Assembly: GCA_965219415.1 (NCBI GenBank)
Contig: OZ244742.1
Span: forward strand, 320,001-384,000
Source of the DNA: Candidatus Marinacidobacterales bacterium
GTDB lineage: Bacteria > Acidobacteriota > Vicinamibacteria > Marinacidobacterales > DATDRI01
Direction of reading: 5' to 3'
DNA: 64,000 nt
Under the pieces are notes generated by a model. The model saw only the letters and a list, made by a program, of their open reading frames with translations, made no database searches and was not told the DNA's origin. Position numbers and translations under genes: made by a program. Positions within the stretch are counted from its first letter, which is position 1, and the number at the start of each line of letters is the position of its first letter. Shown in pieces: positions 9,793 to 64,000 of this stretch.

Positions 9793-9827
9793 CTCCGTCG
9801 GGAACTCGACAGATGTCTCGATAGTAT

Positions 9828-10412: not shown

Positions 10413-10518
10413 GGGCTAGATCATTTCCTGAAATACGGCTTTTGTCCAGTCTGCTACAAATACCGTCTTTTGACGAAATGCTGCCATTCTTTCATCAGAC
10501 CGATCTCGTCCCGGCCCA

Positions 10519-47259: not shown

Positions 47260-47654
47260 TACGGATTGCCGGAGGAGGCCCTTACTTTGTCGAGCAGCTC
47301 ATCCTCCGCCAGTGTCCCGTAGCGTTTGTAGATTCGCAGCAAGAGAGCCAGGGCGACACCGGTCGTCGCGACTCCCACGACGATGGCGGTCAGCATCAGG
47401 ACGTGGGGCAACGGGTTCACGTAGCGAGCAGCTTCTAGAACTACATGCTCTCCGTGGCCTCCCTCGACGATGGGTATGGTCGCACCTCGCTTCGCACCGA
47501 GGGAAACCACGAACAGAATGATTGACCACTGGAAGATATTCATCCCCACGAGCTTCTTGACTAGATTCGTCTTGCCGGTCATCGCATAGAAGCCGATCAT
47601 CATGAGGATGATATAGGTGACGTTATTGAAGTGTCCGATGACGAAGTCGGCCAT
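47259..47654 (-). CDS. mrpC: Mrp/Mnh subunit C
   Basis: NLVKK...NPLPHVLMLTAIVVG motif. Confidence 0.9.
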   Translation of the reverse strand: MADFVIGHFNNVTYIILMMIGFYAMTGKTNLVKKLVGMNIFQWSIILFVVSLGAKRGATIPIVEGGHGEHVVLEAARYVNPLPHVLMLTAIVVGVATTGVALALLLRIYKRYGTLAEDELLDKVRASSGNP

Positions 47655-47662
47655 CGATTCCT

Positions 47663-48079
47663 CTACTCGAATGTGATCAGGTCGTGAAAGATAGAGACCA
47701 TGACCGCCATGACCGTTATTCCCACGCCGATCTCGATCCCCAAGGAGCCGATGATGCGGGGCTGGACGATAGGAAGGATCCCGTAATCGAGAAAATTCGC
47801 ACCGAGGAACAAGCAGAGGACACCGACCGCAGCGTAGAGGAAGACGCCCAGACTCGTGAGAACAGTCAACGACGCTAGAGAGAACCTTTCTTTCACTTCG
47901 TCGATACCATAGCCGAGCGAAAGCAAGATGAAGCTAGAACCCAGGATCACGCCCCCCTGAAAACCTCCCCCAGGACTGCTGTGCCCGTGCATGATGACGT
48001 AGAGGCCGAACAATTGGACGAAGGGGACGAGGCTCCGACAGACCGTCTTCACGATGACACTCTGTTGTTTCTGAATCAC
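47663..48079 (-). CDS. mrpB: Mrp/Mnh subunit B
   Basis: HGHSSPGGGFQGG motif. Confidence 0.9.
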   Translation of the reverse strand: MIQKQQSVIVKTVCRSLVPFVQLFGLYVIMHGHSSPGGGFQGGVILGSSFILLSLGYGIDEVKERFSLASLTVLTSLGVFLYAAVGVLCLFLGANFLDYGILPIVQPRIIGSLGIEIGVGITVMAVMVSIFHDLITFE

Positions 48080-48081
48080 TC

Positions 48082-48360
48082 TTAGTCCTCGTCTCGGCGC
48101 GTTCGCAGGATCAGAATTACTGCCACTGCAGCAGTGAAGATGACGATGGTCTCCCCCAACGTGTCGAAGCTGCGGTAATCGGCCAAGACCGCGGTGACCA
48201 TGTTCGGAGTGTTGGTCTCGGAGTACCCTTCCTCAATGTATCTTGGAGATACATGCAGACTGGCGGGCGACTTCGGATCGCCCGTATCAGACATGTCTAG
48301 CGAACCGAAGAAGAGCAACAGCCCGGTCAATCCGGTTACAACCAGGTGGGGGTACTTCAA
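48082..48360 (-). CDS. MbhE-like small Mrp subunit (fragment homologous to the MrpA C-terminus)
   Basis: PN.VTAVLADYRSFDTLGE motif. A TTG start overlaps the upstream stop. Confidence 0.82.
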   Translation of the reverse strand: MKYPHLVVTGLTGLLLFFGSLDMSDTGDPKSPASLHVSPRYIEEGYSETNTPNMVTAVLADYRSFDTLGETIVIFTAAVAVILILRTRRDED

Positions 48361-48602
48361 TCTTTGCTCACTCTGTCCGTCTTGAAGACGGTGATGACGA
48401 AGAGGACGGTAGTAATACCGGCACCCACCGAGGCTTCGGTGAAGGCGACGTCTACTGCGCCCATCTCCACCCACAACAAGCACATGAACAAACTAAAGGC
48501 TCCCAGCAGAATGACCGATGCCAGTAGATCCTTCACCATGACCGCCGAGAGGGCGCACACCACAGAGAACAGAAGCAACACGACATCCAGTTGCCAGATC
48601 AC
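48357..48602 (-). CDS. MbhD/DUF4040-like small Mrp subunit
   Basis: A.DVAFTEASVGAG motif. Confidence 0.82.
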   Translation of the reverse strand: MIWQLDVVLLLFSVVCALSAVMVKDLLASVILLGAFSLFMCLLWVEMGAVDVAFTEASVGAGITTVLFVITVFKTDRVSKD

Positions 48603-48920
48603 TTAGCCCTCTTCTCCTACACTTCCGCTTTCCTTGGTCCAAATCGGCATCTTGTTCTGGAGCGCGGCCCTCGCTATGGCATGGGTCGCGGTGGGACTGG
48701 TCACGAAGATGAAAAGCGCGATGAACAATATTTTGACACCGGTGAGGTCGATGCCCTCGTAAAACGCGAGACCGGTGAGCACGAGCAAACTGCCCAGCGT
48801 GTCGCTCTTTCCGGCGGCATGCATCCTCGTGTAGAAATCAGGGAATCGGAGGAGCCCGATCGAGCCCATCAGGAGAAAGAAGACTCCCGAGCACACGAGG
48901 GCCACCGCAAGGGCGGTCAT
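48603..48920 (-). CDS. mrpG: Mrp/Mnh subunit G
   Basis: GLLRFPDFYTRMHA..K.DTLG and SP...HAIARAA motifs. Confidence 0.92.
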   Translation of the reverse strand: MTALAVALVCSGVFFLLMGSIGLLRFPDFYTRMHAAGKSDTLGSLLVLTGLAFYEGIDLTGVKILFIALFIFVTSPTATHAIARAALQNKMPIWTKESGSVGEEG

Positions 48921-49204
48921 GGCACCATCCTACGATCTTCGACACCCTTCCTCTCGAAGAACTTCGAAAGCGCTAAGGCGCCAATGAAATTGATGAGCGC
49001 ATAGACGAAAGCGATGTCGATGAAAAATTCGACCCGGTCGAAGATAAATCCAGTGAGCACGATGATGGCGATCGACTTCGTGCCGATCACGTTGACGCCG
49101 ATGATGCGATCGATGATGACCGGTCCCGCGACCACACGGTAGAGCGAAAGCAAGACGGCAAACAGAATGATCAGAGAGGCGGCAATGAAAAAGGCCGGCA
49201 TCAC
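48917..49204 (-). CDS. mrpF: Mrp/Mnh subunit F
   Basis: R...GP...DR...DIA.VYAL.NF pattern. Confidence 0.9.
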   Translation of the reverse strand: MMPAFFIAASLIILFAVLLSLYRVVAGPVIIDRIIGVNVIGTKSIAIIVLTGFIFDRVEFFIDIAFVYALINFIGALALSKFFERKGVEDRRMVP

Positions 49205-49764
49205 TGCTCTCGACTGGCGTCGGAACCATTCTGAGGGCCCGGTTCGAGAAAGACGTGTGCGACGCGCCGTTCCATTTCACCGGTAAGCAAATCCTTCACC
49301 ACTTTGTCACTCAACGCGTGAATGTAGAACTCGTCATCGCTGACATCCATGGTAATCGTCCCAGGCGTCAGAGTGATGGAGTTACCGAGGGTAACCTTGG
49401 CGAGGTCACTCGTCAGAGTCGTTTTGAACCGGACAATCTGAGGGCGAATCTTACTCGGATAGAAGACGAGGTGCACGACATGAAGGTTCGCCAACAACAC
49501 TTGGTAGACCAGCCAGGGTATATAGTGAAGAAACCGCCACGCTTTCAGTAGCTTGTTTCGTGACTTCAGGTCGGGGAGTAACAGATCGTAGGAGAAGAAC
49601 GCGACGAGTCCGGCACAAATGACACCTAGACTGATATGGAACCGATCGAAGTGTCCGGAGAAGATCAGCCAAAAGCCAAACAGGATAAGAAAGACAATGG
49701 CCCGCCTGATGTTGTCCGTCCGTTCGTGTTCAACTTCCGAGGCCATGCCCCTCCCTTCGTCCAA
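49201..49764 (-). CDS. mrpE: Mrp/Mnh subunit E
   Basis: NSITLTPGT.T.D...HAL motif. Confidence 0.92.
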   Translation of the reverse strand: MDEGRGMASEVEHERTDNIRRAIVFLILFGFWLIFSGHFDRFHISLGVICAGLVAFFSYDLLLPDLKSRNKLLKAWRFLHYIPWLVYQVLLANLHVVHLVFYPSKIRPQIVRFKTTLTSDLAKVTLGNSITLTPGTITMDVSDDEFYIHALSDKVVKDLLTGEMERRVAHVFLEPGPQNGSDASREQ

Positions 49765-49924: not shown

Positions 49925-51592
49925 CTAGTTTTTCTTTGTCTTTCTTTTCCAGACGATTCCAGCGCCTTCCAACACGGTATAGGACCCCGGGCCGAGCTCG
50001 GTCAAGGTCTCGCGCCTCCCGCTCGGCCATCGGATAGTGAGCCTATCGACCTTCGCGGAGGCTCCCAGACCGATGTAGATTCGTGAATCGCTATGAGATT
50101 GATAGCCACGGCCTCCGCGCACTTCACGGATCGTCTTACGCGCCCCCAACGCCCCGGTTACGAAGGCCCCCACCCCCGCGCGATTGGATTCCCGACCAAC
50201 TAGGGTCAACACTAACGTGCGATCGGTGACCGGAAAACGGTTCCGAATCAGCGCGGGAGCACCATCCATCACGTTGACCACGACGTCCTGGCTCTGATCT
50301 CCATCCAGATCGCCCAGCGCCGAGCCTCGCGAAGCGCGAGGCTCCAAGAGAACCGATCCGAGGCCTGCGCTGGCGTCTTCGAACTTGCCCTGCCCGTCGT
50401 TGAGAAAAACCTGCATCGGCTGACGGAAGCTTGCGTCGACGTCCGAACCCTCTACCTGCGGGTAAACGTGTCCATTCACCACGAAAATATCCAGGTCTCC
50501 ATCTGCATCCAGATCGGCAAGCCTCGTGCTCCATCCGAGATAGTGAAGGCTCGCCAAACCTAGGCCCGCCAAATCCGTGGAGTCGACGAACGTCAAGCCC
50601 TCCTGGTTCAAGTAGAGCGTGTTGTAGTCGTCCGAGAAGTTCGTAACGAACAGGTCCGGACGGCCGTCACCGTTCACGTCCCCGACGTCGATTCCCATCC
50701 CCGCTTGTTCCATTCCGTTCTGAGATAGTGCCGTTCCCGACAGGAGTGATAGATCCCGAAACCGCCCAGCGCCTTGATTTTCGAAGAGAAGGTTGAACGT
50801 AGAGTCGGTCGCAACGTAGAGGTCCTGATCCCCGTCCAAGTCCAGGTCGGAGAAGATGGCACCGAGTTGGTACGTCTCGCGGTTCAGAATCCCCGCTCGC
50901 TCCGACCAGTCCTCGAAAGTCCCATCCCCCTGGTTGTGATAGAGCACTCCGGATTCGAAACCGAAACCCTTGGGTCCACACTGTACCTTGAGCCCCTTCC
51001 ATTCACAGAACCGTCGCGGGATCGCGCGATCGAGGAGCTCACGGTCGAAGTCGAGGTAATTGCTGACGTAGAGATCGAGGAATCCGTCGTTATCGACATC
51101 ACCGAATACGGCTGTCGAGCTCCACCGTGCTTCCTCGACCCCCACCGGGCTCGCGTCGAACGTACCGTCCCCGTTGTTGCGATAGAGGACATTGGATCCG
51201 TAGTTGGTCAAATAGAGATCGGGATCCCCGTCGTTGTCGACGTCGGCTACCGCGACACCTTGGCCGAACCCTCGATCGCCAACTCCCGCCTGTTCAGTCA
51301 CGTCGGTGAACGACCAAGCTCGATCGTTTCGGAATAGCCGATTTGCCTCGCCGGGCTCACCGGACGCGAGCCTTTGGAGCGTCGAGGCATTGACGAGGTA
51401 GATATCGAGATCGGAGTCGCCGTCGTAGTCGAAGAGCGCGACTCCCGAACCCATCGTCTCAACGATGTAGTCTTTCTGCGGTGTTCCAGCCAAATGTCTG
51501 AAGTCGAGTGTGGGGCCGCGCTCAAAACGCTCCTCCGCGGCTGCGGGAACAGTGAGCGCTGCCAGGAACGCGAAGACGAAAGCGTGCGTCAA
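49925..51592 (-). CDS. CRTAC1-family protein (FG-GAP/VCBS repeats + ASPIC/UnbV), exported; start uncertain
   Basis: Repeated D.D.DGD.D motifs, ETMGSG, AGMG, NGHVYP and C-terminal SNR..VGA...GLG....I.WPSG. Confidence 0.9.
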   Translation of the reverse strand: MTHAFVFAFLAALTVPAAAEERFERGPTLDFRHLAGTPQKDYIVETMGSGVALFDYDGDSDLDIYLVNASTLQRLASGEPGEANRLFRNDRAWSFTDVTEQAGVGDRGFGQGVAVADVDNDGDPDLYLTNYGSNVLYRNNGDGTFDASPVGVEEARWSSTAVFGDVDNDGFLDLYVSNYLDFDRELLDRAIPRRFCEWKGLKVQCGPKGFGFESGVLYHNQGDGTFEDWSERAGILNRETYQLGAIFSDLDLDGDQDLYVATDSTFNLLFENQGAGRFRDLSLLSGTALSQNGMEQAGMGIDVGDVNGDGRPDLFVTNFSDDYNTLYLNQEGLTFVDSTDLAGLGLASLHYLGWSTRLADLDADGDLDIFVVNGHVYPQVEGSDVDASFRQPMQVFLNDGQGKFEDASAGLGSVLLEPRASRGSALGDLDGDQSQDVVVNVMDGAPALIRNRFPVTDRTLVLTLVGRESNRAGVGAFVTGALGARKTIREVRGGRGYQSHSDSRIYIGLGASAKVDRLTIRWPSGRRETLTELGPGSYTVLEGAGIVWKRKTKKN

Positions 51593-51606
51593 GGTGATAG
51601 GGGGAG

Positions 51607-52608
51607 CTACGTGCTCGAAACCACGCGCGTCAGTTTCTCGGCGTAGTCCTCGAGATGCAGGCCATTGACCTCTTCCAGTTTGTCGATCCACTCTACCGGA
51701 AACGCGTTTACACCGGTAATCGCGCCACACATGCCGCCCACGATGCTGGCCGTAGTGTCGCAGTCCCCTCCCAAATTAGTAGCCAGGCGAATGGCCTCCA
51801 CCGGTTCTCCGTTCGCGAGCTTCAGCATCGCGAGGCAGACCGGTACGGTCTCGGTCGTTGCCACCCCAGCGCCCACGACATCGTAGAGCTCGTTCATTAC
51901 CGCTTCGCGATCCGTGGAGCCTTCGACGGTTGCGAGCGCCCGCTCGGTACGCTTGACGATCGAGGCCCCATACCAGGCGCGGCCCTTGCTGCTGCCAAGC
52001 TCCGCCGCCTCTAGCGCTCGCGATATCAACTCGTCCACGTTCGTGATCCCGGCGATGCCGCAGCCGATGACCATAGCCACGGCGCTCGCACCCGCGATAG
52101 CGATGTTCGTGTAGTGGGTCGGCATGCAGGCATCCGCCACCGCATCAACGGTTTTGCCGAGATCCCCTCCCCCATAGATCCCCACCGAGGAGACTCTCAT
52201 GGAAGCACCGTTGGTATCGCCCGTGACACCGGACTCTTCGATGGGTACGCCCTGACGCAGTCGGTGCAGCGCCCTCAACGAGCTCGGTCCAACGATCAAC
52301 CCCTCGAAAGCCCCCATCTCCTCCGCCCACTTCATCAATCTAGCGGCGATATCGTGCGGGTCGACCCTTCCCTTTTGAATGATGGAGTCGGCAATCAGTA
52401 GCGTGTGTTGGGTATCGTCGGTGATTTGTCCGGCCACCATGCGGTCATGAATGACGTGTCCCTCGGGCGCCGGCAGGAAATCCTCTATATACTCCCCGAA
52501 CGTCTCCCTGATGGTCTCCCGGCTCATGAGAGAAGTGGGCATGCCCATCGCGTCCCCGGCAGCGACACCGACTAGGCAGCCATGGATGTGTTCCATTAAA
52601 CTCGCCAT
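51607..52608 (-). CDS. ADP-ribosylglycohydrolase family protein
   Basis: G.A.GDAMG.P, TDDT, NGASMR, H and GGDCDT..SI.G motifs. No signal peptide. Confidence 0.92.
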   Translation of the reverse strand: MASLMEHIHGCLVGVAAGDAMGMPTSLMSRETIRETFGEYIEDFLPAPEGHVIHDRMVAGQITDDTQHTLLIADSIIQKGRVDPHDIAARLMKWAEEMGAFEGLIVGPSSLRALHRLRQGVPIEESGVTGDTNGASMRVSSVGIYGGGDLGKTVDAVADACMPTHYTNIAIAGASAVAMVIGCGIAGITNVDELISRALEAAELGSSKGRAWYGASIVKRTERALATVEGSTDREAVMNELYDVVGAGVATTETVPVCLAMLKLANGEPVEAIRLATNLGGDCDTTASIVGGMCGAITGVNAFPVEWIDKLEEVNGLHLEDYAEKLTRVVSST

Positions 52609-52687
52609 GGTTCCAGAGGATACCACGGCGGTCCCGGTCGTAAACGCGGCTCGCCGATGACAAGACACTAGTTGGAGGGTGATGCAC

Positions 52688-54204
52688 ATGTTGGGTATGG
52701 CGTTCAAGCTCATGATCGCGTTCTCCGGAGGCGTTGCGGCTGCGCTTCAGGCGACGCTGGCCAGTCTTATGGACAGCGCGTGGGTTCGATGGCCAGCGTG
52801 CTAGTCATTCATATCGGTGGGACCCTCCTCGCCGGTGCGCTGCTGCTCGGCCAGGGGGTTGTGACTTCAAGTTTGAAGCGCACCATTCGTTAGAGCCCAT
52901 GGAAACGTTCCTCCGGTGTGCGGTAGCCGAGTCTCTTGCGGGGCCGTGAGTTGAGCTTGTTTGCGATACGATCGCAGTCGCGTTGCGTGAGCGCTGCTTG
53001 GCTGGTGCGCTTCGGCAGGTATTGTCGTAGCAGGCCATTGAAGTTCTCGTTGCTGCCTCTCTCCCATGAGTGATAGGGAGTCGCGAAGTAGAACTTGACG
53101 CCGGTCGCTTCCTCGACGGATTCGTAGTCGTGGAACTCCGTACCATTGTCCGCGGTGATCGTCTTGACCTGCTCCGGCACCCGCCGGAGCAACATCTTCG
53201 TTCGCTGACTAGTGCTGAACATGGTGCGGTCGGACAGCTTGCCGATCAGCGCATAGCCCGTCTTTCGTTCCACGAGCGTGGTTACGCAGTCCGGCGCGCC
53301 TTTTCCTACCACGGTGTCGATCTCCCAGTGGCCAACGGCACTGCGCTTGTCGACACAAGGCGGCCGCTCGGAGATATGACGCTTCCCGGCCAGGTGGCCT
53401 CGGCTGTCATAGCTGTTGTGGCGCTTGCGTCTAAGTTTGGGCGAGCATCGAAGGTGGCGGTATAGATGTCCTCCGGCCTCCTTGTCCCGCCAGACGTGGG
53501 TGTAGATCGTCTCGTGGCTGATCGAGAGCTCGCCGTGAAGGCGCAGGTGGCCGGAGATCTGCTCTGGGCTTCAGTCAGCCTTAAGCTTCTTCTCCACCAG
53601 GGCAAAGTCGGCCTTTGTGAAGTACTGGTTCCGGCGAGACCGCGATCGTCGTCCGTTCGTTTTCTCGATGGCCTTGCTCGGCCGGTAGCATCCATCACTA
53701 CGTGAGCTGTTCCTCCTGACCTCTCTCGAGATTGTGCTCCGGTGGCGCCCCAGGCGCCGCGCAATCTCGGCCGAGCAAAATCCCTCCCGTCGCAGCGCCG
53801 CGATGGTGTATCGTTCTTCCGAGGTGATCTGGTAATAAGTCATTAGCGAGTCCCCATTCTTGGTTGTTTGAGGAATCGTGGCACATCCCAGGTCACCTCA
53901 TCCGGGAGCTGTGTTGCACTTACTTTATGAATTCGCGGGTAGCAACATCGCTCAGTGGCGTACGGTACCCTGGTATGCGCTAGGGGCAGGCACGCTCGGC
54001 GTCGGCATACTGAGCGCGATCAACTACGCGATCCCGCGCCTCGGTGTAGGGACGACCATTACTCTCTTTGTTACCGCGCAGCTCATGGTGGGGGCGGTGG
54101 TCGATCACTTCGGGTTGTTCGGCACCGACGTTCGTTCGTTCGATGTACTGCGCACCGGTGGGATCGCTGCGCTCCTTCTTGGTACCTGGCTGATGGTGCG
54201 GTAG
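52688..54204 (+). pseudogene. DMT family (YdcZ-like) transporter interrupted by IS30
   Basis: The N-half (GGVAAALQ...) is at 52688-52859 and also has a frameshift near 52775. The C-half (PWY..G.G.LG...PRLG...AQL.....DHFG.FG) starts at 53938. Confidence 0.82.
52860..53937 (-). mobile_element. IS30-family insertion sequence with a nonsense-mutated transposase
   Basis: IRs TGTGACTTCAAGTTTGAAGCGCACCA and CGCGAATTCATAAAGTAAGTGCAACA, flanked by GGT/GGT. Transposase 53843-52890 (HRSTISRE, ISHETIY, HWEIDT, DNGTEF, NENFNGLLRQYLPK) has a TGA at the usual W of WSPEQ. Confidence 0.9.
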
Positions 54205-54225: not shown

Positions 54226-55038
54226 CTAGGCGAGCCTTCCAATCTCCGTCACGGGAACGCTCAATCCTCGAGCGACCGACGCGCTCTCCTCGGCGGAGAC
54301 TGATAAGAGTGCGCAGGTAGAAGGGCCTGCCGATTTATCTACGTCCAACCGCGGGTCGGGAATCGTAACGAACTCTAGGCCAGCCAAGCTCGCCAACTCG
54401 CGCGCCTCATACGAAACTCCCTGCGAACCCACGGGTAGAAGGTCGTGAACACCCTCCAGCCGCAATAAGTCTCGTATCTGCGACAGCCGTACAATCTCCC
54501 TGTCATCCAAAGTTATGTCATCGTTGGGCGCCGACTTGGGCAAACCGACGCACAGCACTCTATCCCCAGCCCTAGCGCTTCCGGGACGAAAGTCATTCTG
54601 ATGGACGAGACCTAGAACCGTCGTTGCGACTCCGGTCGAATCGGTGGGCACGTTGTCCTCGGTGCTTCCGGACAATGGGAAGTCGGCTCCCAGCCCGGCT
54701 TCCGCTAGCTCGTCACGCACACCGCGGACAATCTCTTTCCCGAGCTCGTCCATCGGGACCGTCAACATGTCGAATGCTGCGATGGGAGTCGCACCACACG
54801 AGATAATTTCCATGAGAGGAACTCTCATCGCGAATCGCCCCAACACGTACTCGGGCACCCGCACCAAATCGTGCGCACGAGATCCGATTCCTCCGTCGGA
54901 GTCCACGGCAACCACCAGCGAGAGCTGCCCGCCCAGGTCGATCCTCGTAAGGTCTCGAATCCGTTCGCAGGTGAACCCGCCGTCTCTTTGTTTGGCTTGG
55001 GCATATAGACCCGCCAACGAGACTTCTGAGTCAGACAT
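54226..55038 (-). CDS. AIR-synthase (PurM)-fold protein resembling alpha-ribazole kinase CblS
   Basis: RDLT...DS.GGIG...D.V...RV.LME...GA.P...GSTEDN.PT..TG...TV.G and PVGS.G..E...D..KSAGPST motifs. Confidence 0.72.
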   Translation of the reverse strand: MSDSEVSLAGLYAQAKQRDGGFTCERIRDLTRIDLGGQLSLVVAVDSDGGIGSRAHDLVRVPEYVLGRFAMRVPLMEIISCGATPIAAFDMLTVPMDELGKEIVRGVRDELAEAGLGADFPLSGSTEDNVPTDSTGVATTVLGLVHQNDFRPGSARAGDRVLCVGLPKSAPNDDITLDDREIVRLSQIRDLLRLEGVHDLLPVGSQGVSYEARELASLAGLEFVTIPDPRLDVDKSAGPSTCALLSVSAEESASVARGLSVPVTEIGRLA

Positions 55039-55041
55039 TGT

Positions 55042-56493
55042 CTAAGGTGGCGGCGCCGCGACCTGCTGCCGGTAGCGCTCCATGGCCTCGGCACTCTTAT
55101 CGGTTTCGCCGAGCCGATCGTACGCTCCGGCCAGATTCAGACTATAGGTTGGATTCTCTGGATCGAGCGCCGCTGCCTTCTCGAAAGCAGCGATAGAACC
55201 CGCGTGATCGCGCGCCTCGCCCAGGATGACTCCCAGCGCATTGTAAAGACGGCTATTGTGCGGGCTAAGGGTCACCGCCCGCCGCACCGCCTCGAGGGAT
55301 CCGGCTAGGTCTCCCTTATCTCTGAGGAACAGTGACAACAAGTAGGGATACTCCGCCGCCCCTGGGGAAAGCTCGATGGCCCGCCGGATGTATGCGATAG
55401 CCACATCGACCTGTCCTAAGGAGCGGTGAGTCTTGGCGAGGTAGGAGTAGCCTTGGTGGCTCGTGGGATCGAGCTCGGTCATCTCCAGAAACGCCTCGAT
55501 CGCATCCTCCAAACGGTTCTCCTCCAGGAGCTGCCGTCCGGAGCCCAAGGCGGCGACGGCTCGCCTCACCCGCTCGTCCTTTCGCGCTTGCTCGTCCCTC
55601 TGGGACTTGAAACGGGTGAGGTACTTCTTCGCGTCCTCACTACGCCCCTCCCGGCTTAGGAGATTACCCAGGGCGTACGTGGCCTGCGACAGGTCCGGCG
55701 CTAGCTCGATCGCTTTCTCAAAAGCGGCTATCGCCTCATCTGGTCGCCCGAGCTTGGCCAATAGCGACCCGTACTCGTAATGGGTCAAGGCGTAGTTGGG
55801 ATCCAGCTCGAGCGACCTCCGGAGGCTAGTGAGGGCCTGCTCCATCGTCTGCGGAACCTGGGCTTCCAGACGCCCCTTGTGAAACCAGGCACGCGCATGG
55901 TCGGGCTTTCGCTTGATAACGCGATTGAAGAACTCCAGGGCTTCTTCTCTTTTTTTTTGACCGCTGAGGACTCCTCCCAAATAGTACAGTGCCTCCGTAT
56001 CCTGGGGGTGAATCTCCACGTAAGAGCGCAGAGCTTGGGTCGATTTCTCGAACTGCTCGCTCGCCAGGTACAGGTCCGCCAGCGAAAGGTAGGCTTCACC
56101 CGAGCCAGGATCCAGACGGATCGCAGCTTGGTAGGCCCGTTCCGCCTCGGCGAGATTTCCGAGCCCGAGAAAAATCTCACCCTGGAGAAGAGGGAAGAGC
56201 GCCTCCTCAGGATCGATGGCCAATGCCTGATTGACCGCCGCCAGAGCGTCGTTGAGCAGCCCTCTTTGGAAAAGTATCCACGCCAGGCTGTAGTGGACAC
56301 GGGGATGGTCCGGTCGCAGCCGGGCCGCCTCCTGGAAGGCGGCGGTGGCCTCCTCGAGCTGTCCCGCCCGCTCCGCGAGGACCGCCCGGGTGATGACTGC
56401 CTCGAAAGTGGGCTTCTCCTGCCCGACTCCGAAATGCGGTCCGAGAAAGATGAAAAGCCCCACCGGAACCGCCAGCGTCCGAAGCGAAGTCAT
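55042..56493 (-). CDS. Exported multi-TPR protein
   Basis: Signal-like N-terminus followed by many A...DP....A...LG repeats. Confidence 0.85.
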   Translation of the reverse strand: MTSLRTLAVPVGLFIFLGPHFGVGQEKPTFEAVITRAVLAERAGQLEEATAAFQEAARLRPDHPRVHYSLAWILFQRGLLNDALAAVNQALAIDPEEALFPLLQGEIFLGLGNLAEAERAYQAAIRLDPGSGEAYLSLADLYLASEQFEKSTQALRSYVEIHPQDTEALYYLGGVLSGQKKREEALEFFNRVIKRKPDHARAWFHKGRLEAQVPQTMEQALTSLRRSLELDPNYALTHYEYGSLLAKLGRPDEAIAAFEKAIELAPDLSQATYALGNLLSREGRSEDAKKYLTRFKSQRDEQARKDERVRRAVAALGSGRQLLEENRLEDAIEAFLEMTELDPTSHQGYSYLAKTHRSLGQVDVAIAYIRRAIELSPGAAEYPYLLSLFLRDKGDLAGSLEAVRRAVTLSPHNSRLYNALGVILGEARDHAGSIAAFEKAAALDPENPTYSLNLAGAYDRLGETDKSAEAMERYRQQVAAPPP

Positions 56494-56569
56494 AAGAAAC
56501 AAAAATGCCGGGGCCCTGAAGTTGGGCCGGCAAGGACATCTAATTAACACTCCTTGCCGCTCCAACTCT

Positions 56570-56718: not shown

Positions 56719-59682
56719 TCAGTTGCCGCCGGCGCCGAACCTCCATTTGATGCCGATCTGAGCTTCCCGCGATACTCCTAGGAACGTATCGCAGTTCACG
56801 GGATTCTTATTGGTGCGGCATTGTCCATAGGTTGGAGCAGCGAACAAGGTCGTTGTGGTGTTGAAGTTATCGTTGTTGAACAGATTGAAGATCTCGAACA
56901 ACAAGTCAAGCTCGCCCGCCTTCCCCAGATTGCCGGTCCACATCACGCGGAAGTCGACGTTGATGAAGTTGGGCTGACGCTCCGGAAACCGCGGTTGTAG
57001 GTTTCCGTTGGCGTCGACCGGTCGGTCGAACGTGTTCCCATCTCCGTTGACGTCGACGCTCTCAAACGCAGCGAGGGGGAGGCCCCTCCGGAACGTCCCG
57101 ATACCACTCAGAGTGACGCCCGCACCCACGTGCGTCGTTCCCTGAAAGACGAAACGATGCGTGATGTCGCGCTCATCGATCCCGAAGTCGTCTTCCAGGT
57201 TGTGCGCATCGGACGGTCCGAGCGTGATGCCGATGTCCCGCTCGATGTCTGCATTGGACTGATCTCGCGACCAGGTGTAGTGGGCCAGAAACTGTCTGCG
57301 GTCGCTGAAGGCCTTCTTCAGCGTGACGGTCACCGCCTTGTAGCGGGCCCGGCCCAGGCTGGAAAGCATGTCGGCCTGGAAGACGCTGCTCGATGGTCGG
57401 CCACGGCTGAAGACATCCACGCCCGTCGGCCGCCCGAACTCGTCCCTACCCGAAGGCGCGAACGTGTTCTGATCGAACGTCGTATTGAACCCTCCGACAC
57501 GAGCGTTGTCCGTCTTCGACCAGATGAAATCCACCCCCAGGGCCAGGTTGGGAACGAGCTCGTGCTCCACACCGGCGTTAATGTTCAGGACCCGGGGGTT
57601 GTTGAAGTCCTGGGCGACGAAGCCGTGCGACGATACCAGGCCCTCTGTTACGGGAATGGTGCTCGGGGGAACATCCGGAAAATTCGCACCGGGCGGCAAG
57701 GCGCCAAAGAAGAATCCCGTGCTGTCGCGGAACCCGCTACCGCCGGTGGGCATGAAGATGGTGGCCGTCCGGCCGTAGTAGAGTCCCGCCGCCCCGCGTA
57801 CCACGGTTCTCCCGTCGCCACTCGGGTCCCAGGAGATACCGAATCGAGGACCGAGGTTGTTGGTATCGTTGGCGATGGTTTGAGGTATCGGCATGAGTTC
57901 GTCCCCAGGAGCCTCGCGGACCATCCCGAACGAGCCGTCCGGGTTCCCGATGGGGAGCTTGGGATCGCCGTTGTATTGCGCTTCGTATCGCAAACCGTAG
58001 TTGATGGTCAGGTTGGGCGTGGGCTGCCACTTGTCCTGGATGAAAAGCCCCAGCTCGTGCGTCCAATAATTGTTGGTGGTGGCGGTGTCTTCATTGAAGG
58101 GCTCGAAGAACTGTCGGAATATGAACGCGAAAGGCTCGCGAGCCTGGAAGTCTTCCAGTGAGAGGAACCAATAGCTACCCCGCGACCAGCCGATGAAGGA
58201 GTTATTCGTAAGCTCGGTGGAGTTCCAATCGACGCCGAACTTCACGTCGTGGTTGCCGAAGAGATAGCTGAAGCTATCGGTGAGCTGGATCCGGTTGTTG
58301 TCGCCCACGATAGGAAGGAAAAACTCGCGACCAAAGCAACCGGCCAAGCAGGTATCGAGTATCTGCACTTCCGGCAAATCCGCCTTCGCTTCACGCGGCC
58401 TTACCTCGTGAATGTAATGGAACTTGAACTCGTTGAAGGCGCTGGTACCGATGACGCTGGTCAAGCTGGCCACCACCGAGGTCGCGGTGTTGTTGAAGTC
58501 CTCGAAGTTCTCCGCCGCCGCCGCCACGATGGACTGTCCGCGCCCGCCGGTGAAGTTGATGGTGTCGTTCTTGCTCCGGTTGTAGCGCACTGTCAACCGA
58601 TGGCCGCTGCTGATATCGAAGTCGACCTTAGCGAAGATGGTCAATAGATCTTGCACTTCAGGATTCGGTCCTTCGAAGTCAGCCAGGTTGGAGATCCCGT
58701 ACTCGGGGACCGCGATACCGTTGACGGGTCGCCGATATCGGGTAACGACGTTGTCATCCCTCTTCTGCGCATCGAAAGCGACGAAGTAGAACGCCTTGTC
58801 TTCCTTAATAGGCCCACCGATACCGGCACCGAACTGTTGTTGAGAGAAATCGTCGGACGGATTTCCGAAAGGGTCGTCGGTCTTCAACCCGGAATCACGG
58901 AAGAACGCGAACGCCCCGCCCCTGACGTCGTTGGTCCCCGACTTCGTGACCACGTTGACCATGCCCCCGGTCGAGCGGCCGAACTCGGCGGTGAATCCGT
59001 TGGTCAAGACTTGGAACTCCTGGACCGCCTCCTGCGAGATGGCGAAGTTCTTGGTCTCCAGAGATCCCGTGTACTCGGCGAAGAAGGGGTTGGTCATATC
59101 CGCACCGTCCACTTGGAGCCCCGAGTAGTCCCCCTGCTGGCCACCGATGCGGAGAGGGGAGCGGAGACCAGGAGTCACGTCCACGCGAGGTGACAGGAGC
59201 GCGAAGCCACGAAAGTCCCGCCCGTTGATGGGCAGCGTGTCGATGGCCTCCTGGTTGAGGGTGGTACTTGCCACCGCTCGTGAAGTTTCCACGATCGGGG
59301 TATCGGCGGTGACGGTGATAGCTTCCGTCACACTCGCAAGCGGTAGTGTCAGATCGATGACCGGGGCAGATCCGATGGTCACCACCACACCCTCTCGGGT
59401 CAACGTGGCAAAGCCGGATAGCGCCGCTTCGATGCGGTAGGGCCCGACCGGTAGCAATGGGGCCCTATAGCGACCCCCATTGTCGCTCGCGACGACACGC
59501 GTTAGTCCGCTCCTCAAGTGAGTGATCGTGATCGTCACACCGGGAAGGAAGGCGCCCGTCTCGTCTCGCACTGTTCCGGTGAGCTCGCCTCGGTCGAGGG
59601 TCTGCGCGAAGCCGGTCGTCGTTCCGAGAACGAGAGTGAGAACCGTCAGGAACAATTTAAAAGAATTCCTGTTCTTAGACAT
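56719..59682 (-). CDS. TonB-dependent receptor with N-terminal carboxypeptidase-regulatory-like domain (Oar-like)
   Basis: Signal peptide, G.V.D.TGA.LPG, LPINGRDF, AEFGR..G..VN.VTKSGTN, QDKW....LT.NYGLRYE and FNLFN motifs. Confidence 0.92.
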   Translation of the reverse strand: MSKNRNSFKLFLTVLTLVLGTTTGFAQTLDRGELTGTVRDETGAFLPGVTITITHLRSGLTRVVASDNGGRYRAPLLPVGPYRIEAALSGFATLTREGVVVTIGSAPVIDLTLPLASVTEAITVTADTPIVETSRAVASTTLNQEAIDTLPINGRDFRGFALLSPRVDVTPGLRSPLRIGGQQGDYSGLQVDGADMTNPFFAEYTGSLETKNFAISQEAVQEFQVLTNGFTAEFGRSTGGMVNVVTKSGTNDVRGGAFAFFRDSGLKTDDPFGNPSDDFSQQQFGAGIGGPIKEDKAFYFVAFDAQKRDDNVVTRYRRPVNGIAVPEYGISNLADFEGPNPEVQDLLTIFAKVDFDISSGHRLTVRYNRSKNDTINFTGGRGQSIVAAAAENFEDFNNTATSVVASLTSVIGTSAFNEFKFHYIHEVRPREAKADLPEVQILDTCLAGCFGREFFLPIVGDNNRIQLTDSFSYLFGNHDVKFGVDWNSTELTNNSFIGWSRGSYWFLSLEDFQAREPFAFIFRQFFEPFNEDTATTNNYWTHELGLFIQDKWQPTPNLTINYGLRYEAQYNGDPKLPIGNPDGSFGMVREAPGDELMPIPQTIANDTNNLGPRFGISWDPSGDGRTVVRGAAGLYYGRTATIFMPTGGSGFRDSTGFFFGALPPGANFPDVPPSTIPVTEGLVSSHGFVAQDFNNPRVLNINAGVEHELVPNLALGVDFIWSKTDNARVGGFNTTFDQNTFAPSGRDEFGRPTGVDVFSRGRPSSSVFQADMLSSLGRARYKAVTVTLKKAFSDRRQFLAHYTWSRDQSNADIERDIGITLGPSDAHNLEDDFGIDERDITHRFVFQGTTHVGAGVTLSGIGTFRRGLPLAAFESVDVNGDGNTFDRPVDANGNLQPRFPERQPNFINVDFRVMWTGNLGKAGELDLLFEIFNLFNNDNFNTTTTLFAAPTYGQCRTNKNPVNCDTFLGVSREAQIGIKWRFGAGGN

Positions 59683-59875: not shown

Positions 59876-60947
59876 ATGATCAGAGCGGCAACACTTCTAG
59901 TTGGCTTGTATTCTGTATTCTTTGCAGCACAGGGTACCGCCCAGGAGTCTTCGGAGCGCCTCAAGGTCATCGTGGACACCGACCTCGGCTTCGCCAGCGA
60001 CGATGCCATGGCCTTGCTCATTCTCCTGCAGTCAGAGAAGGTCGATCTCCTCGGCGTCACCGTCGTCACCGGCAATGACTGGCTGCGACAAGAGGTAGCG
60101 AACGCATTGAGGCTACTGGAGATCGCCGGTCGCCCGGACGTCCCCGTCTTCGCCGGCGCGGAAAGACCTCTCCTCAATACCCAGGAAGAAACGAAACGAC
60201 GAGAGGCCCTCTTCGGCGAAACCAGCGATGGCGGTTATAAGGGAGCCTGGCGGGAAGAGGGGCCGGGCCCACGAGACGTCAGCCCGCCGGAAGTTCGCGG
60301 AAAAGAAAGCGGAATCTTCCCACGCCGTCAACTTCATCCTCGAAACCATCCATCGGCATCCGGGAGAAGTGGTGCTCGCCGCCATCGGGCCTTTGACCAA
60401 CGTCGCACTCGCGTTGGCAAAGGACCCCACCATCGCTAGCCTGGCGAAGGAGATTATTATTATGGGGGGCGGCATAGGGACGCTCCCCGAGTTCAACTTC
60501 TGGATGGATCCGGAAGCTGCGCGGATGGTTCTCCGAGCTCCCTGGCAGAAAGTCAGCATAGCTCCCTTGAACATCTGCGAGCAAGCTCCGTTTACGCGGG
60601 ACGTCGCAACGGCGGCGGCGGATGGAGATTCTCCTATCTCCGGTTACTTCGCCGATACGTCCCTCTCGCGGTCCGAGCATGCCGCCTCGCCACTCATGTA
60701 TGACCAAATCGCGGTGCTCGCCTTGATCGAGCCGGGGGTCATTGCGCGTTCCGAGGAGATGCCTGTCGACATCGAGATCGACCACGACGCCTCTTACGGG
60801 GCGATGCTCTATTGGGATGACCGGCGCAAACCACCGGCAGGCGTGCGCAACGCGACGGTACAGCTCGATCTGGACTACCCCCGTTTCATCCAGGCTTTCC
60901 TCGAACTGATGAAACGTCCGGCAGCCCCGCCGCCGTCGACGCGCTAG
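59876..60947 (+). CDS. Exported nucleoside hydrolase 1, frameshift near 60295
   Basis: Signal peptide, DTDLGFASDD, GPLTNVA, IMGG, EFNFWMDPEAA and MYD motifs. Confidence 0.88.
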
Positions 60948-61023: not shown

Positions 61024-62001
61024 ATGTTCATACCCGAATCTTACGGGCTCGCCCTCCTTCTAATGATCATCTGCATGATCTGCTGGGGCTCATGGGCCAA
61101 CACCTATAAGCTCACCAAAGACGTCCGCTTCGAGCTCTTCTACTGGGACTACGCCATCGGAATCTTCGTGATGGCGTTACTTCTCGCCTTCACGCTCGGA
61201 AGCTGGGGAGGCGGTGAGGAAGCCTTCATGCCGAATCTCATGCAAGCCACCGGCTCGCGACTAGGCCTCGCAATGGTGGGAGGGACGGTGTTCAACCTCG
61301 CGAACATCTTGCTCGTCGCTGCCATCGCCATTGCCGGCCTGGCGGTCGCCTTTCCGGTGGCTATCGGAACGGCGCTGGTGGTGGGCACTATCGTGACCTA
61401 CTTGGTCGAACCGAAGGGCGATGTGCGGTTGCTCGCCGTCGGCGTTGTACTCGCGCTCGTTGCCATCATCGCCGATGCCCTCGCCTACAAAGAGCTGGGA
61501 GGTGGGAAGCTCAAAGTCACGAAGAAAGGGATCTGGATCTGCATCGTGAGCGGCCTCCTCATGGGAGGCTGGTCGCCCTTTACCGCGGCGTCCATGGCGT
61601 CCGGCGCCGGTCAGTTGACCCCCTACACGAGCGTGGTCTTCTTCACGTTGGCCGCCCTAGTCTCGACCTTCATCTTCAACATCTACTTCATGGAGAAACC
61701 ATTGGTGGGAGAGCCGGTCTCTTTGTCCGGCTACGTGCAGGGCGCCCCGAGTTGGCATGTTCTGGGCCTCGTCGGCGGTTTCATCTGGTGCGTCGGAACC
61801 GCCTTCAACTTGATCGCCGGTCGTACCGCCGGCTTCGCAATCTCCTACGCCATCGGCCAAAGCGCACCCATGGTTGCCGCCATCTGGGGAATCTTCGTGT
61901 GGAAGGAGTTCGCCGGCGCGAACAACAAGGCAAAGATGTACCTGGCCCTGATGTTTGTTTTCTACGCGGGTGCCATCGCCGCCATCGCCAACGCTTTCTG
62001 A
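61024..62001 (+). CDS. Ureide-permease-like (DMT superfamily) transporter
   Basis: M.CWGSWAN..K...R.ELFYWDY, FNLANILL, SYAIGQ and WGIFVWKEF motifs. Confidence 0.8.
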   Translation: MFIPESYGLALLLMIICMICWGSWANTYKLTKDVRFELFYWDYAIGIFVMALLLAFTLGSWGGGEEAFMPNLMQATGSRLGLAMVGGTVFNLANILLVAAIAIAGLAVAFPVAIGTALVVGTIVTYLVEPKGDVRLLAVGVVLALVAIIADALAYKELGGGKLKVTKKGIWICIVSGLLMGGWSPFTAASMASGAGQLTPYTSVVFFTLAALVSTFIFNIYFMEKPLVGEPVSLSGYVQGAPSWHVLGLVGGFIWCVGTAFNLIAGRTAGFAISYAIGQSAPMVAAIWGIFVWKEFAGANNKAKMYLALMFVFYAGAIAAIANAF

Positions 62002-62015
62002 CCGGACCTCAATCG

Positions 62016-63101
62016 ATGAAACGACTACCGACCCTTTTCGCCGCGCTGCTGGCTGCCGGAATGGTCGCCGACAGCAGTGTCGTCAGCGCTCTGGAGGACC
62101 CTACTGCCCAGAATCCCCGTCGCATCATCCTTGACATCGATCCCGGTATCGACGATGCCATGGCGGTCTTGCTGGCAACGCAGTCACCGGAGCTTCAGAT
62201 CGAGGCCATCACCGTAGTATCGGGAAACGTCATCGTGGACCTGGGTGCGGTCAACGCGCTCAAGCTCGTGGAGCTGGCCGAGCGGCCCGACATCATCGTG
62301 GCCAAAGGAGCGAAGTATCCTCTCCAGCGAAAGCTCATCACCGCGGAGTCGGTTCACGGAAAAAACGGCATGGGAGACATCGAGCTCCCAGCTCCTACCA
62401 AGAAGCTGGACCCACGCCACGCCGTGGAAGTCATCCTCGATATCGTGGACGCGAATCCCGGAGCGATCACACTGGTCCCGGTGGGCCCACTGACTAACAT
62501 CGCGCTGGCACTACTGCAGGACCCGACGCTGCCCGAAAAGGTCCCCGAGATCATACTCATGGGAGGCTCGGTCATTGGGGGCAACGCCAGCCCCGCGGCT
62601 GAAGCCAACATCTATAATGATCCCGAAGCTGCCAAGATCGTCTTCAACTCCGGGATTCCCATCACGATGGTTGGGCTGGGAGCCACATCGCAGGCCAAAC
62701 TAGAACGGCGGCATCTCCCCCAGCTCTCCCGCTCGGGTTCACCCATCGGAAAATTCGTAGCAGACGTCGCCGACTTCTATATCGGTTTTTCGGAGATGCT
62801 AGGCTTCGAGGGATCTGACCTTCACGATCCTCTGGCGGTGGGGATGGCCTTCGACAAGACGTTTGCCAAAAAGATCTGGCCGATGCACATCGACGTCGAG
62901 ACCAAGGGAGAGCTGACCTATGGGGAGACCGTCGCCAACCGATACCTACTGTTGGAAAGCTTCGAGGATGTGGGAGACCACTACGAGATCACGAATTTCC
63001 CCAAGGTAGAGGCGAACACCGACGTGCCGACCGAAGTGGATGGCGATCGGTTCGTGGCCACCTTCGTCGAACGTCTTTCGGCGCCACCGCGGAAGCCATA
63101 G
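62016..63101 (+). CDS. Exported nucleoside hydrolase 2 (canonical IU-NH signature)
   Basis: Signal peptide, DIDPGIDD, HGKNG, GPLTN, AEANI..DPEAA and LHDP motifs. Confidence 0.92.
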   Translation: MKRLPTLFAALLAAGMVADSSVVSALEDPTAQNPRRIILDIDPGIDDAMAVLLATQSPELQIEAITVVSGNVIVDLGAVNALKLVELAERPDIIVAKGAKYPLQRKLITAESVHGKNGMGDIELPAPTKKLDPRHAVEVILDIVDANPGAITLVPVGPLTNIALALLQDPTLPEKVPEIILMGGSVIGGNASPAAEANIYNDPEAAKIVFNSGIPITMVGLGATSQAKLERRHLPQLSRSGSPIGKFVADVADFYIGFSEMLGFEGSDLHDPLAVGMAFDKTFAKKIWPMHIDVETKGELTYGETVANRYLLLESFEDVGDHYEITNFPKVEANTDVPTEVDGDRFVATFVERLSAPPRKP

Positions 63102-63144: not shown

Positions 63145-64000
63145 ATGCATCGTTTATCGTTAGTTGCCTTCTTTTTTCTCTTCCTACTGGCCAGCGCCTC
63201 TTCCGGCCAAGAGCGCACCAAGGTCTTCATCGACCAGGACACCTCGGGCCCTGGTGGAACGGATGTCGTGTCCATCGCCATGTTGCTCATGGCCCCAAAC
63301 ATCGAGGTCGTGGGGATCGGCGTGGTTGGCGGCGATGCCTGGCTAGATCAGGCCGTTTATCACACCCTCAAGATCGTGGAGGTTTGTGGCCAGCCGGATG
63401 TTCCGGTGGCGGCCGGATCGGAAGATCCACTTCTTAACAGCGAGGGGGCCATGAACCGTCGCGAAGGCCTATGGGGACCCAAGGAAGGTGACGGATGGCA
63501 CGGCGCGTGGGGCCCCCAAGTCGCGCCGAAGACGACCATTCCCCCGGCCCCAGGCGGCCCCCCGACCATCAAACCCGTGGACAAACACGCCGCGGAGCTC
63601 CTCATCGAGATGGCTCGGAAATATCCCGGCGAGCTGGTACTGTATACTGCGGGCCCGCTTACCAATATCGCTCTCGCAATCCGGATCGCACCGGACATCG
63701 TAGGCAAGATCAAAGCCGTCTATACGATGGGTGGAGCGACCCACGTGAACCACATGTTCAATTTTTGGTGGGACGCCGAGGCGGCCGCGATGCACCTTCG
63801 CGCACCGTGGAAAGACATGGAGCTCACACCCATCGACGTCTGTCACAAGACCCAGATGACGAAGGCGCTGATCGAGCGCATCGCCACCGCGAACACTCCG
63901 CTCGCCAACTACATGAAGGAATCCTATCTGGGACCCAACGTAGACGAGGGGATCTTCACCTTTATGTGGGACGAGCTATCGGCGGCCTCCATCATCGATC
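63145..64000 (+). CDS. Exported nucleoside hydrolase 3 (runs off the window end; absent from the ORF track)
   Basis: Manual translation gives MHRLSLVAFFFLFLLASASSG-QERTKVFIDQDTSGPGGTD...AGPLTNIA...MGG...FNFWWDAEAA...FMWDEL. Confidence 0.9.
   Translation, partial: MHRLSLVAFFFLFLLASASSGQERTKVFIDQDTSGPGGTDVVSIAMLLMAPNIEVVGIGVVGGDAWLDQAVYHTLKIVEVCGQPDVPVAAGSEDPLLNSEGAMNRREGLWGPKEGDGWHGAWGPQVAPKTTIPPAPGGPPTIKPVDKHAAELLIEMARKYPGELVLYTAGPLTNIALAIRIAPDIVGKIKAVYTMGGATHVNHMFNFWWDAEAAAMHLRAPWKDMELTPIDVCHKTQMTKALIERIATANTPLANYMKESYLGPNVDEGIFTFMWDELSAASIID

Follow-up and report, generated by a model that had tools for sequence, protein, structure and literature searches.

A CblS-family kinase paired with an ADP-ribosylglycohydrolase-family protein points to a two-enzyme route for alpha-ribosides

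Introduction

What is the role of a CblS-like kinase whose gene lies apart from any cobamide gene? This question is raised by a gene at positions 54,226 to 55,038 of a 64,000-nucleotide stretch of contig OZ244742.1 (positions 320,001 to 384,000; hereafter, the window), from a Candidatus Marinacidobacterales bacterium of the Acidobacteriota. The original prediction, made from the letters of the DNA alone, took the product for a CblS-like alpha-ribazole kinase and offered two readings: salvage of cobamide lower ligands fed by a TonB-dependent receptor (TBDR), or a new alpha-riboside kinase working with a neighboring enzyme of the ADP-ribosylglycohydrolase family. Here the kinase is called KIN and the neighbor ARH. 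The comparisons described below place KIN in the CblS family and reveal a coupling of its sub-branch to ARH. The pair points to an undescribed two-enzyme route handling alpha-ribosides.

The work on CblS reportedly comes from Gray and Escalante-Semerena (2010) and from Mattes and Escalante-Semerena (2017). In passages of PMC6461909, PMC6167548, and PMC6722938, CblS is described as the alpha-ribazole kinase of Listeria innocua and Geobacillus kaustophilus, and a passage of the first of these counts CblS in 363 species, mostly Firmicutes. The two genes considered here are as follows.

54226..55038, minus strand: KIN, a CblS-family (PurM-superfamily) kinase, intact, 270 aa; assigned by open reading frame (ORF) and start context, Pfam, homology, AlphaFold2 fold, and tree.
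51607..52608, minus strand: ARH, an ADP-ribosylglycohydrolase-family protein (Pfam PF03747), 333 aa when read from MASLMEH; the ORF is open back to 52713.

Genomes and loci that were compared carry G- and L- labels, respectively, and G000 is the genome of the window.

Assignment of KIN to the CblS family

The ORF of KIN runs from ATG to TAG. The stop codon (TAG) of a gene for a tetratricopeptide-repeat (TPR) protein is followed by three bases, ACA, and then by the ATG of KIN; the coordinates and gene order first given, with KIN 3 bp past the TPR gene and a TBDR gene further upstream, are correct. Pfam recognized only the N-terminal AIRS domain (E = 4e-7), and the matches to SelD and ThiL in NCBIfam were weak and sub-threshold. 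Because NCBIfam has no model naming CblS or CblT, membership in the CblS family could not be judged by family models; the cblT and cblS genes of L. plantarum themselves gave weak, unrelated matches. Among the solved chains of the PDB, the sole sequence match of KIN was SelD (E = 0.046), and no CblS structure was found among these chains by the sequence search or the fold search with KIN.

Judged by its sequence, KIN is a full-length homologue of Firmicute CblS and a genuine member of the CblS family. A tblastn search of a plasmid collection gave seven records with 30-33% identity, covering 79-83% of KIN (E = 7e-14 to 4e-27), and four of the seven were opened for their operon context. In the L. 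plantarum plasmid pMF1298-5 and in an L. brevis plasmid, the matching gene follows that of an energy-coupling factor (ECF) S component (cblT) and precedes cobS and a histidine phosphatase gene (cobC). In Listeria, the matching gene is followed by cobU, cobS, and cobC, and in Cytobacillus it stands behind cbiZ, cobU, cobS, further genes, and an ECF-S gene. The operon of pMF1298-5 is named CblT, CblS, CobS, CobC in a passage of PMC6722938. A 17-sequence alignment that includes CblS from cob operons is collinear from end to end, with 27 invariant columns and the shared motifs RDL, D-S-x-x-G, GSTE[DE]N, PVGSxG, and SAGP[SA]T; nearly all of the family-invariant residues are retained in KIN. The likeness to Firmicute CblS stated at the outset is real, as seen in the tblastn matches, the operon contexts, and the motifs kept over the full length.

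KIN is 49% and 44% identical to the kinases of two cblT-cblS pairs (L090 and L097, respectively), each of which is preceded by a cobalamin riboswitch. In the Atlas, a neighbor cluster is automatically named "Putative alpha-ribazole-5-phosphate synthase CblS" (score 0.96). The family of CblS-like proteins is small: among 1.84 billion representatives, 489 clusters (50% identity) were found at E <= 0.001 and 378 at 1e-10. The AlphaFold2 model of KIN (predicted local distance difference test score 95.8, predicted TM-score 0.92) has the two-domain fold of the PurM superfamily. In a Foldseek search with this model, the top match was SelD (3U0O; E = 2e-15, TM-score 0.69), and HypE, ThiL, and PurM were also found; all of them show 14-18% identity and are equally distant.

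Adjacency to CblT, a trait of the CblS family, is missing here: a single query turned up nothing CblT-like in G000, the window included, an empty answer that is weak. With the same single query, such a gene was also not found in G131, G401, G402, or G403, where an empty answer likewise shows little. A search for fused forms of KIN among longer proteins returned nothing at E <= 0.001, a negative of little weight. Among 150 representatives, the kinase is fused to a ribbon-helix-helix (RHH) domain, NAD_binding_7, or an ABC ATPase, and never to ARH. Extra domains were seen in the CblS-family proteins P0194, P0214, P0239, P0221, and P0150; several carry the RHH domain at the N-terminus, and one carries NAD_binding_7 of the siroheme-synthase type. 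The Atlas cluster of the RHH-fused type is archaeal, with Bathyarchaeota being the commonest source.

A FastTree tree of 223 rows places the 59 ARH-linked rows, without exception, in one clade of 80 rows (Shimodaira-Hasegawa (SH)-like support 80), and this clade contains no cob-linked or riboswitch-linked member. A quick IQ-TREE run under the posterior mean site frequency model was then made with 73 rows, for which 30 rows of the 80-row clade and one in four of the representatives were kept. Its main clade has 34 rows (SH-like approximate likelihood ratio test 89), of which 27 are ARH-linked, including KIN of the window, and seven are of unknown context. A small clade of its own, close to the type of G011 (a genome of the window's phylum), is made up of L078, L083, and L088. 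The riboswitch-linked cblT-cblS kinases are sister to the main clade together with L078/L083/L088 and the G011 type (support 85-91); outside these come the cob-linked genes of Firmicutes. Because of this position relative to the riboswitch-linked and cob-linked kinases, KIN is nested inside the CblS family, among its cob-linked and riboswitch-linked members. A branching away from CblS, for which a phylogeny with ThiL, SelD, HypE, and PurM had been suggested, was not seen; these four were compared by fold, with the identities given above, and by the sub-threshold NCBIfam scores.

Two side observations concern the small lineage. In L078, L080, and L083 the ARH gene is more divergent (37-38% identity) and lies approximately 250 bp downstream, with nucleoside-hydrolase-like and GNAT genes upstream. 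L088, of the same lineage, has an enolase-superfamily gene in place of that of ARH.

Coupling of KIN to ARH

ARH matches PF03747 with an E value of 1e-63 over profile positions 1-285 of 287. The motifs GDAxG (G18-D19), TDDT (T63-D64-D65-T66), and DCDT (D282-C283-D284-T285) are invariant in 31 sequences, and their acidic residues presumably bind metals. The nearest solved chain is MJ1187 (1T5J; E = 4e-28), a protein of unknown function, and the matches to the equivalog models of DraG and Tri1 are sub-threshold.

The ARH gene follows that of KIN in all four relatives found in the genome-contig collection. Among the metagenome loci, it lies downstream on the same strand in 60 of 80, at a spacing of 12-266 bp in 46 loci and of 2.6-3.4 kb in 14, where it stands behind the EcfAA' and EcfT genes. 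When the count is restricted to loci whose downstream DNA extends for 4.5 kb or more, ARH is present in 36 of 39; the exceptions are L088, L090, and L097. Of 301 genomes in the phylum to which the L006 genome belongs, 25 have KIN. The same 25, and no others, have an ARH orthologue (identity of 48% or higher), in every case next to KIN and in the same orientation; two additional genomes contain nothing closer than a paralogue of ARH with 35% identity. In the phylum of the window, an ARH-type KIN and an ARH orthologue occur together in two of 401 genomes, G000 and G131, and are adjacent in both. G011 encodes a classical CblS, 35% identical to KIN; for ARH, nothing matched there at E <= 1e-30.

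The second of the two readings offered at the outset, a new alpha-riboside kinase working with the neighboring ARH enzyme, therefore gains strong genomic support from adjacency and strict co-occurrence in two phyla. Whether the KIN sub-branch, taken as derived, works as an obligate pair with the ARH-family enzyme appears to us evenly balanced, with as much to be said for it as against it. As a separate idea, ARH was considered as a regulator that de-ADP-ribosylates KIN. This idea was set aside because no gene of an ADP-ribosyltransferase was seen in the conserved neighborhood of the relatives' loci.

Cobamide genes and riboswitches

All 29 genomes that bear the pair encode B12-binding domains. 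CobS (PF02654) was matched in one of them, G000, and had no match in the other 28; CobT (PF02277) was matched in none of the 29. Because completeness figures exist only for G000 and G131, the absences in the other 27 genomes mean "not found". No cobalamin riboswitch was detected ahead of the pair in any of the 35 ARH-type loci scanned, the window included. By comparison, both classical cblT-cblS loci (L090 and L097), which have no ARH, carry one in front. In the window, an Rfam scan of all 64 kb gave no RF00174 match at the gathering score or above, and the earlier statement that the window has no cobalamin riboswitch holds. No cob gene lies near the pair in the part of the window to which protein-family models were applied, that is, beyond its first 44 kb. 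The pair has about an even chance, in our estimate, of not serving CobS-dependent cobamide assembly. A side observation was made in L025: at 4471-4651 (minus strand), a cobalamin riboswitch drives a separate, divergent TBDR gene beside the kinase-ARH operon, and that operon is not under its control.

The genome of the window deserves separate consideration. The suggested search for cobS, cobT, and cobC succeeded in part: CobS, CobU, and a CobC-like gene were found on a contig other than that of the window, and CobT had no match. The single cobalamin riboswitch of G000 stands ahead of TBDR-BtuF-BtuD-BtuC-CobQ-CobS, which is followed by the CobC-like gene and then by CobU. At 8756-10007 (minus strand) of L016, on contig C3, the CobU frame contains one in-frame TGA, and the CobC-like histidine phosphatase is split over two frames. 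CbiB, like CobT, had no match in G000, and KIN is the sole CblS homologue. The nucleotide-loop pathway of this genome looks decayed, and its genes may be decaying; assembly errors are an alternative cause of the broken genes.

A classical salvage role for KIN is conceivable in G000 because CobS is present, CobT has no match, and no other CblS homologue could serve. Imported alpha-ribazole would be converted by KIN to alpha-ribazole phosphate for CobS, which would complete cobinamide salvage without CobT, and ARH would be accessory or unrelated. The riboswitch-controlled uptake operon just described, with CobS in it and the CobC-like gene and CobU behind, accords with such a role. So does the fact that the nearest relatives of known context outside the ARH branch are cob-linked; for example, the CblS homologue of G011 sits in BtuC-BtuD-CblS-CobU-CobS-BtuF. 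However, the in-frame TGA of CobU and the split CobC-like gene, whether real or due to assembly, as well as the lack of a CbiB match, do not favor a working pathway. The same pair occurs in 28 genomes without a CobS match, with no riboswitch or cob gene near it, and the strict coupling to ARH would be left unexplained. We regard the classical role as unlikely. For the family as a whole, lower-ligand salvage fed by a TBDR, the first reading offered, finds no support in the CobS and CobT counts; it is conceivable in G000, which has CobS, no CobT match, no second CblS homologue, and CobU and CobC-like genes that look broken.

Uptake and regulatory genes of the relatives

The ORFs of 85 loci were clustered and representatives were scanned with family models, from which three layouts were recognized. 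In layout (a), a lipoprotein metallophosphoesterase and a GntR/UTRA regulator precede KIN and ARH, which are followed by two TBDRs, a beta-propeller lipoprotein, and then S-adenosylhomocysteine hydrolase or a BtuF-like lipoprotein; in part of the loci, all of these are preceded by adenosine deaminase. Layout (b) consists of a GntR/UTRA regulator, a CblT-like ECF S component, KIN, EcfAA', EcfT, ARH, and a TBDR. Layout (c), the Acidobacteria type to which the window belongs, consists of a TBDR, a TPR protein, KIN, ARH, and an FG-GAP/ASPIC protein, with a YdcZ-family gene of the drug/metabolite transporter (DMT) type on the opposite strand beside KIN. Over all loci, the GntR/UTRA regulator is present in 51, and the lipoprotein metallophosphoesterase heads the operon in 23. 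A CblT-like S component, 28-41% identical to CblT of L. plantarum, lies directly upstream of KIN in 22 of the 68 loci with room for it.

The best solved matches of the TBDRs in layout (a) are Bacteroides BtuB1/2/3 and E. coli BtuB (E down to 2.8e-41), at scores below the NCBIfam cut-off for BtuB. The beta-propeller lipoprotein matches BtuG1 (E = 1e-6) and BtuG2 (approximately 4e-4). Because of these matches, the KIN-ARH family is taken to have a context resembling that of B12 uptake, though the window itself does not. The description "outside any cobamide context" is accordingly true of the window and misleading for the family, in which operons of relatives contain BtuB-, BtuG-, and BtuF-like genes or a CblT-like ECF component.

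This context also bears on the thought that the pair acts on intact imported cobamides. KIN would phosphorylate the 5'-OH of the lower-ligand ribose and ARH would remove or exchange the base, which would amount to editing or dismantling of the nucleotide loop independently of CobS. That the BtuB/BtuG/BtuF-like operons with the pair belong to cobamide users lacking CobS and CobT matches would suit such a reaction, as would the metallophosphoesterase at the head of the 23 operons. It is without precedent, however, and nothing indicates that a corrinoid would fit into an active site of the CblS type; from the CblT-like ECF component, a small riboside would be expected. To our knowledge, base exchange by an ARH enzyme is not known. 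We consider action on whole cobamides highly improbable.

Neighborhood of the pair in the window

The genes around KIN and ARH are listed below in order of position.

49925..51730, minus strand: FG-GAP/ASPIC (UnbV) repeat protein downstream of ARH; Pfam FG-GAP_3, FG-GAP, and UnbV_ASPIC; follows ARH in L004, L007, and L018.
52670..52815, plus strand: 5' part of a YdcZ-family gene, cut off by an insertion and divergent from ARH; tblastn of the L004 homologue, residues 3-51.
52857..53939, minus strand: IS30-like insertion of approximately 1.08 kb with broken transposase frames; HTH_38 at 53571-53843, rve at 52890-53312.
53872..54204, plus strand: 3' part of the YdcZ-family DMT membrane-protein gene, convergent with KIN; Pfam PF04657, E = 6.7e-20, profile positions 55-140 of 140.
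55042..56565, minus strand: TPR-repeat protein, 507 aa, directly upstream of KIN; Pfam TPR families; also precedes KIN in L004, L007, L018, and L056.
56719..59682, minus strand: TBDR, 987 aa, with CarboxypepD_reg and OMP_b-brl_4 (Pfam); orthologues lie upstream of TPR-KIN in L004, L007, and L018.
59876..60947, plus strand: nucleoside hydrolase 1, with a signal-peptide-like N-terminus, split into 59876-60439 and 60228-60947; Pfam IU_nuc_hydro, profile positions 1-85 and 91-296.
61024..62001, plus strand: ureide-permease/GRP-type membrane transporter, 325 aa; Pfam Ureide_permease, E = 5e-25, and NCBIfam RhaT/GlcU.
62016..63101, plus strand: nucleoside hydrolase 2, with a signal-peptide-like N-terminus; Pfam IU_nuc_hydro, E = 2e-89.
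63145..63999, plus strand: nucleoside hydrolase 3, with a signal-peptide-like N-terminus, running off the window; Pfam IU_nuc_hydro, E = 3.5e-48.

The insertion splits the YdcZ-family gene between KIN and ARH. The 3' part matches residues 41-153 of the intact homologue in L004, and full-length homologues adjoin KIN in L004, L005, and L018. L007, the closest relative, from a Marinacidobacterales metagenome-assembled genome, is continuous at this place, with 87% DNA identity on both sides. No terminal inverted repeats of the insertion were found. The ORF listed for the FG-GAP/ASPIC protein overlaps the ARH gene; for this reason its true start is probably internal. The TBDR of the window was considered as a BtuB orthologue, and this assignment was dropped because its similarity to the riboswitch-controlled TBDR of G000 and to the BtuB-like TBDRs of the relatives is only generic.

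Two further observations were made in passing. After the FG-GAP gene, the window contains an operon for an Mrp/Mnh-type multisubunit cation/proton antiporter (45754-49764, minus strand; MnhE, G, B, C-like, and D-like), which is syntenic in L007 and seems unrelated. In L007, the kinase gene at 10001-10812 is in two frames, 10001-10531 and 10480-10812.

The block of nucleoside hydrolases and transporter is divergent from the TBDR gene and is common to the window and L007; nucleoside hydrolase 1 consists of two overlapping frames in the window and is a single ORF in L007, where the transporter is 96% identical. This block raises another thought, namely that the substrate of KIN is now a riboside outside the cobamides, for example a nucleoside that is modified or damaged, or a fragment of ADP-ribose or NAD. 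Kinase-then-glycosidase catabolism with ARH would result, joined here by the periplasmic nucleoside hydrolases and the permease. In addition to the three secreted-type IU nucleoside hydrolases and the ureide-permease/GRP transporter beside the TBDR, the nucleoside-hydrolase-like gene near KIN in L078, L080, and L083 and the adenosine deaminase and S-adenosylhomocysteine hydrolase flanking the operon in some relatives are in keeping with it. GntR/UTRA control in place of a riboswitch is typical of catabolic operons, and ADP-ribose conjugates are the substrates of those ARH-family proteins that have been named. However, the S component before KIN is closest to CblT, at the identities given above, and KIN is nested among cob- and riboswitch-linked CblS with nearly all invariant residues kept. 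The TBDR, propeller, and binding-protein neighbors of the relatives, moreover, resemble proteins of B12 uptake. A substrate outside the cobamides thus seems improbable to us.

Proposed reactions

Family membership, fold, pairing and co-occurrence, the missing CobS and CobT matches, and the uptake-gene context are observed in the data presented here. The reading that we favor from these, and to which we would give an even chance of being correct, is that KIN is an ATP-dependent kinase of alpha-ribosides of the alpha-ribazole type that feeds the ARH hydrolase independently of cobamide assembly. ARH enzymes prefer alpha-linked ribosyl bonds on 5'-phosphorylated ribose. A two-step module is suggested because KIN appears to descend from cob-linked CblS, a CblT-like importer accompanies it in some lineages, its pairing with ARH is strict, and ARH has this preference.

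An alpha-linked riboside of the alpha-ribazole type would cross the outer membrane via the TBDR. The inner membrane would be passed through the CblT-like ECF component in some lineages and, at loci of the Acidobacteria type, perhaps through the YdcZ-family DMT protein. KIN would then phosphorylate the 5'-OH of the riboside, and ARH would hydrolyze the alpha-glycosidic bond of the resulting 5'-phosphate to give ribose 5-phosphate and the free base. The phosphorylated intermediate is the probable signal for the GntR/UTRA repressor of the relatives. We infer what the pair acts on, in which order its steps run, what it forms, and which physiological purpose it serves.

Several points weigh against this reading. 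The substrate, reaction order, and products are drawn from homology and from general knowledge of ARH chemistry, and a purpose is not easily named: a cobamide auxotroph lacking CobS and CobT would, as far as one can see, gain little from the free base or ribose 5-phosphate of a trace metabolite. Given the BtuB/BtuG-like context, the substrate might instead be a whole corrinoid or some other compound, and the best solved match of the beta-propeller is not BtuG but an archaeal S-layer YVTN domain (E = 4e-11). Completeness is known for only two of the 29 genomes, G000 (96%) and G131 (99%). In the IQ-TREE tree, ARH linkage is not strictly confined to one clade: three changes are needed, with L078/L083 standing apart, and the context of seven main-clade rows is unknown. 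Finally, the pair is not one operon in the window and L007; because the opposite-strand YdcZ-family DMT gene lies in between, KIN and ARH are separate transcription units there.

A wider form of the proposal may be stated, which we hold to be doubtful. KIN and ARH would constitute the first known pathway that dismantles cobamide lower-ligand ribosides by uptake, phosphorylation, and de-ribosylation, and ARH would be the first of its family with a small alpha-N-riboside 5'-phosphate as natural substrate. The pathway would be wired into BtuB/BtuG-like operons under a substrate-sensing GntR/UTRA regulator in cobamide-auxotrophic diderms. With such wiring, alpha-ribazole could also signal the presence of nearby cobamide producers.

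Implications

In comparative genomics, the presence of CblS is taken to mean that alpha-ribazole is salvaged to make cobamides. This reading appears to fail in a sizeable diderm branch of the family whose hosts are cobamide users without a CobS or CobT match and whose kinase is locked to an ARH-family hydrolase. Direct genome searches covered the Acidobacteriota and the phylum of the L006 genome; the source names on protein matches also include Marinimicrobia, Fidelibacterota, and Calditrichota. A passage of PMC9296465 reports alpha-ribazole in marine exometabolomes. If the proposed chemistry is true, alpha-ribazole would have a new fate, an orphan clade of the ARH family would gain a small-molecule function, and metagenomic cblS matches would need a different interpretation. 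In the main text of the papers searched, no link was found between an ARH-family enzyme and CblS or alpha-ribazole. PMC9503650 names both ADP-ribosylglycohydrolase and ribazole, in unrelated passages.

Comparison with known systems

Compared with classical CblS, KIN is of the same family over its full length, with the same invariant motifs and a PurM-type fold, and some relatives have a CblT-like ECF component upstream. In contrast to classical CblS, the KIN branch is always ARH-paired, lacks the cobalamin riboswitch, is under GntR/UTRA control, and occurs in diderm hosts with TBDRs; cobS, cobU, and cobC are not near it and are usually not found in the genome.

With the ARH/DraG family (ARH1, ARH3, DraG, and Tri1), ARH shares PF03747 over the whole protein and the acidic motifs of the metal site. 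It differs in being coupled to a small-molecule kinase, in having no ADP-ribosyltransferase partner in sight, and in its sub-threshold DraG and Tri1 scores. Because of the coupling to a small-molecule kinase, ARH is likely to act on a small phosphoriboside and not on a modified protein.

Catabolic pairs in which a kinase acts before a cleaving enzyme are known for pseudouridine (YeiC/YeiN) and for fructoselysine (FrlD/FrlB, with the GntR/UTRA regulator FrlR). The logic is alike, namely a transporter, a kinase, an enzyme splitting the phosphorylated glycoside, and a UTRA-type regulator, whereas the protein families are unrelated and the substrates and bond types differ. The yegT-yegU-yegV genes of E. 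coli encode a nucleoside-type transporter, an ARH-family protein, and a PfkB kinase. The same triad of transporter, kinase, and ARH is seen here, with a kinase of the PurM/CblS family in place of PfkB.

The last comparison is with the BtuB-BtuG(-BtuH) uptake loci of Bacteroides, as described in parts of PMC10404256 and bioRxiv 10.1101/2024.02.16.580637. The relatives of the window resemble these loci in their two BtuB-like TBDRs, BtuG-like propeller lipoprotein, and BtuF-like lipoprotein. Unlike the Bacteroides loci, they have a GntR/UTRA regulator rather than a riboswitch, the kinase-ARH pair, and a lipoprotein metallophosphoesterase, and the TBDR of the window is of another type.

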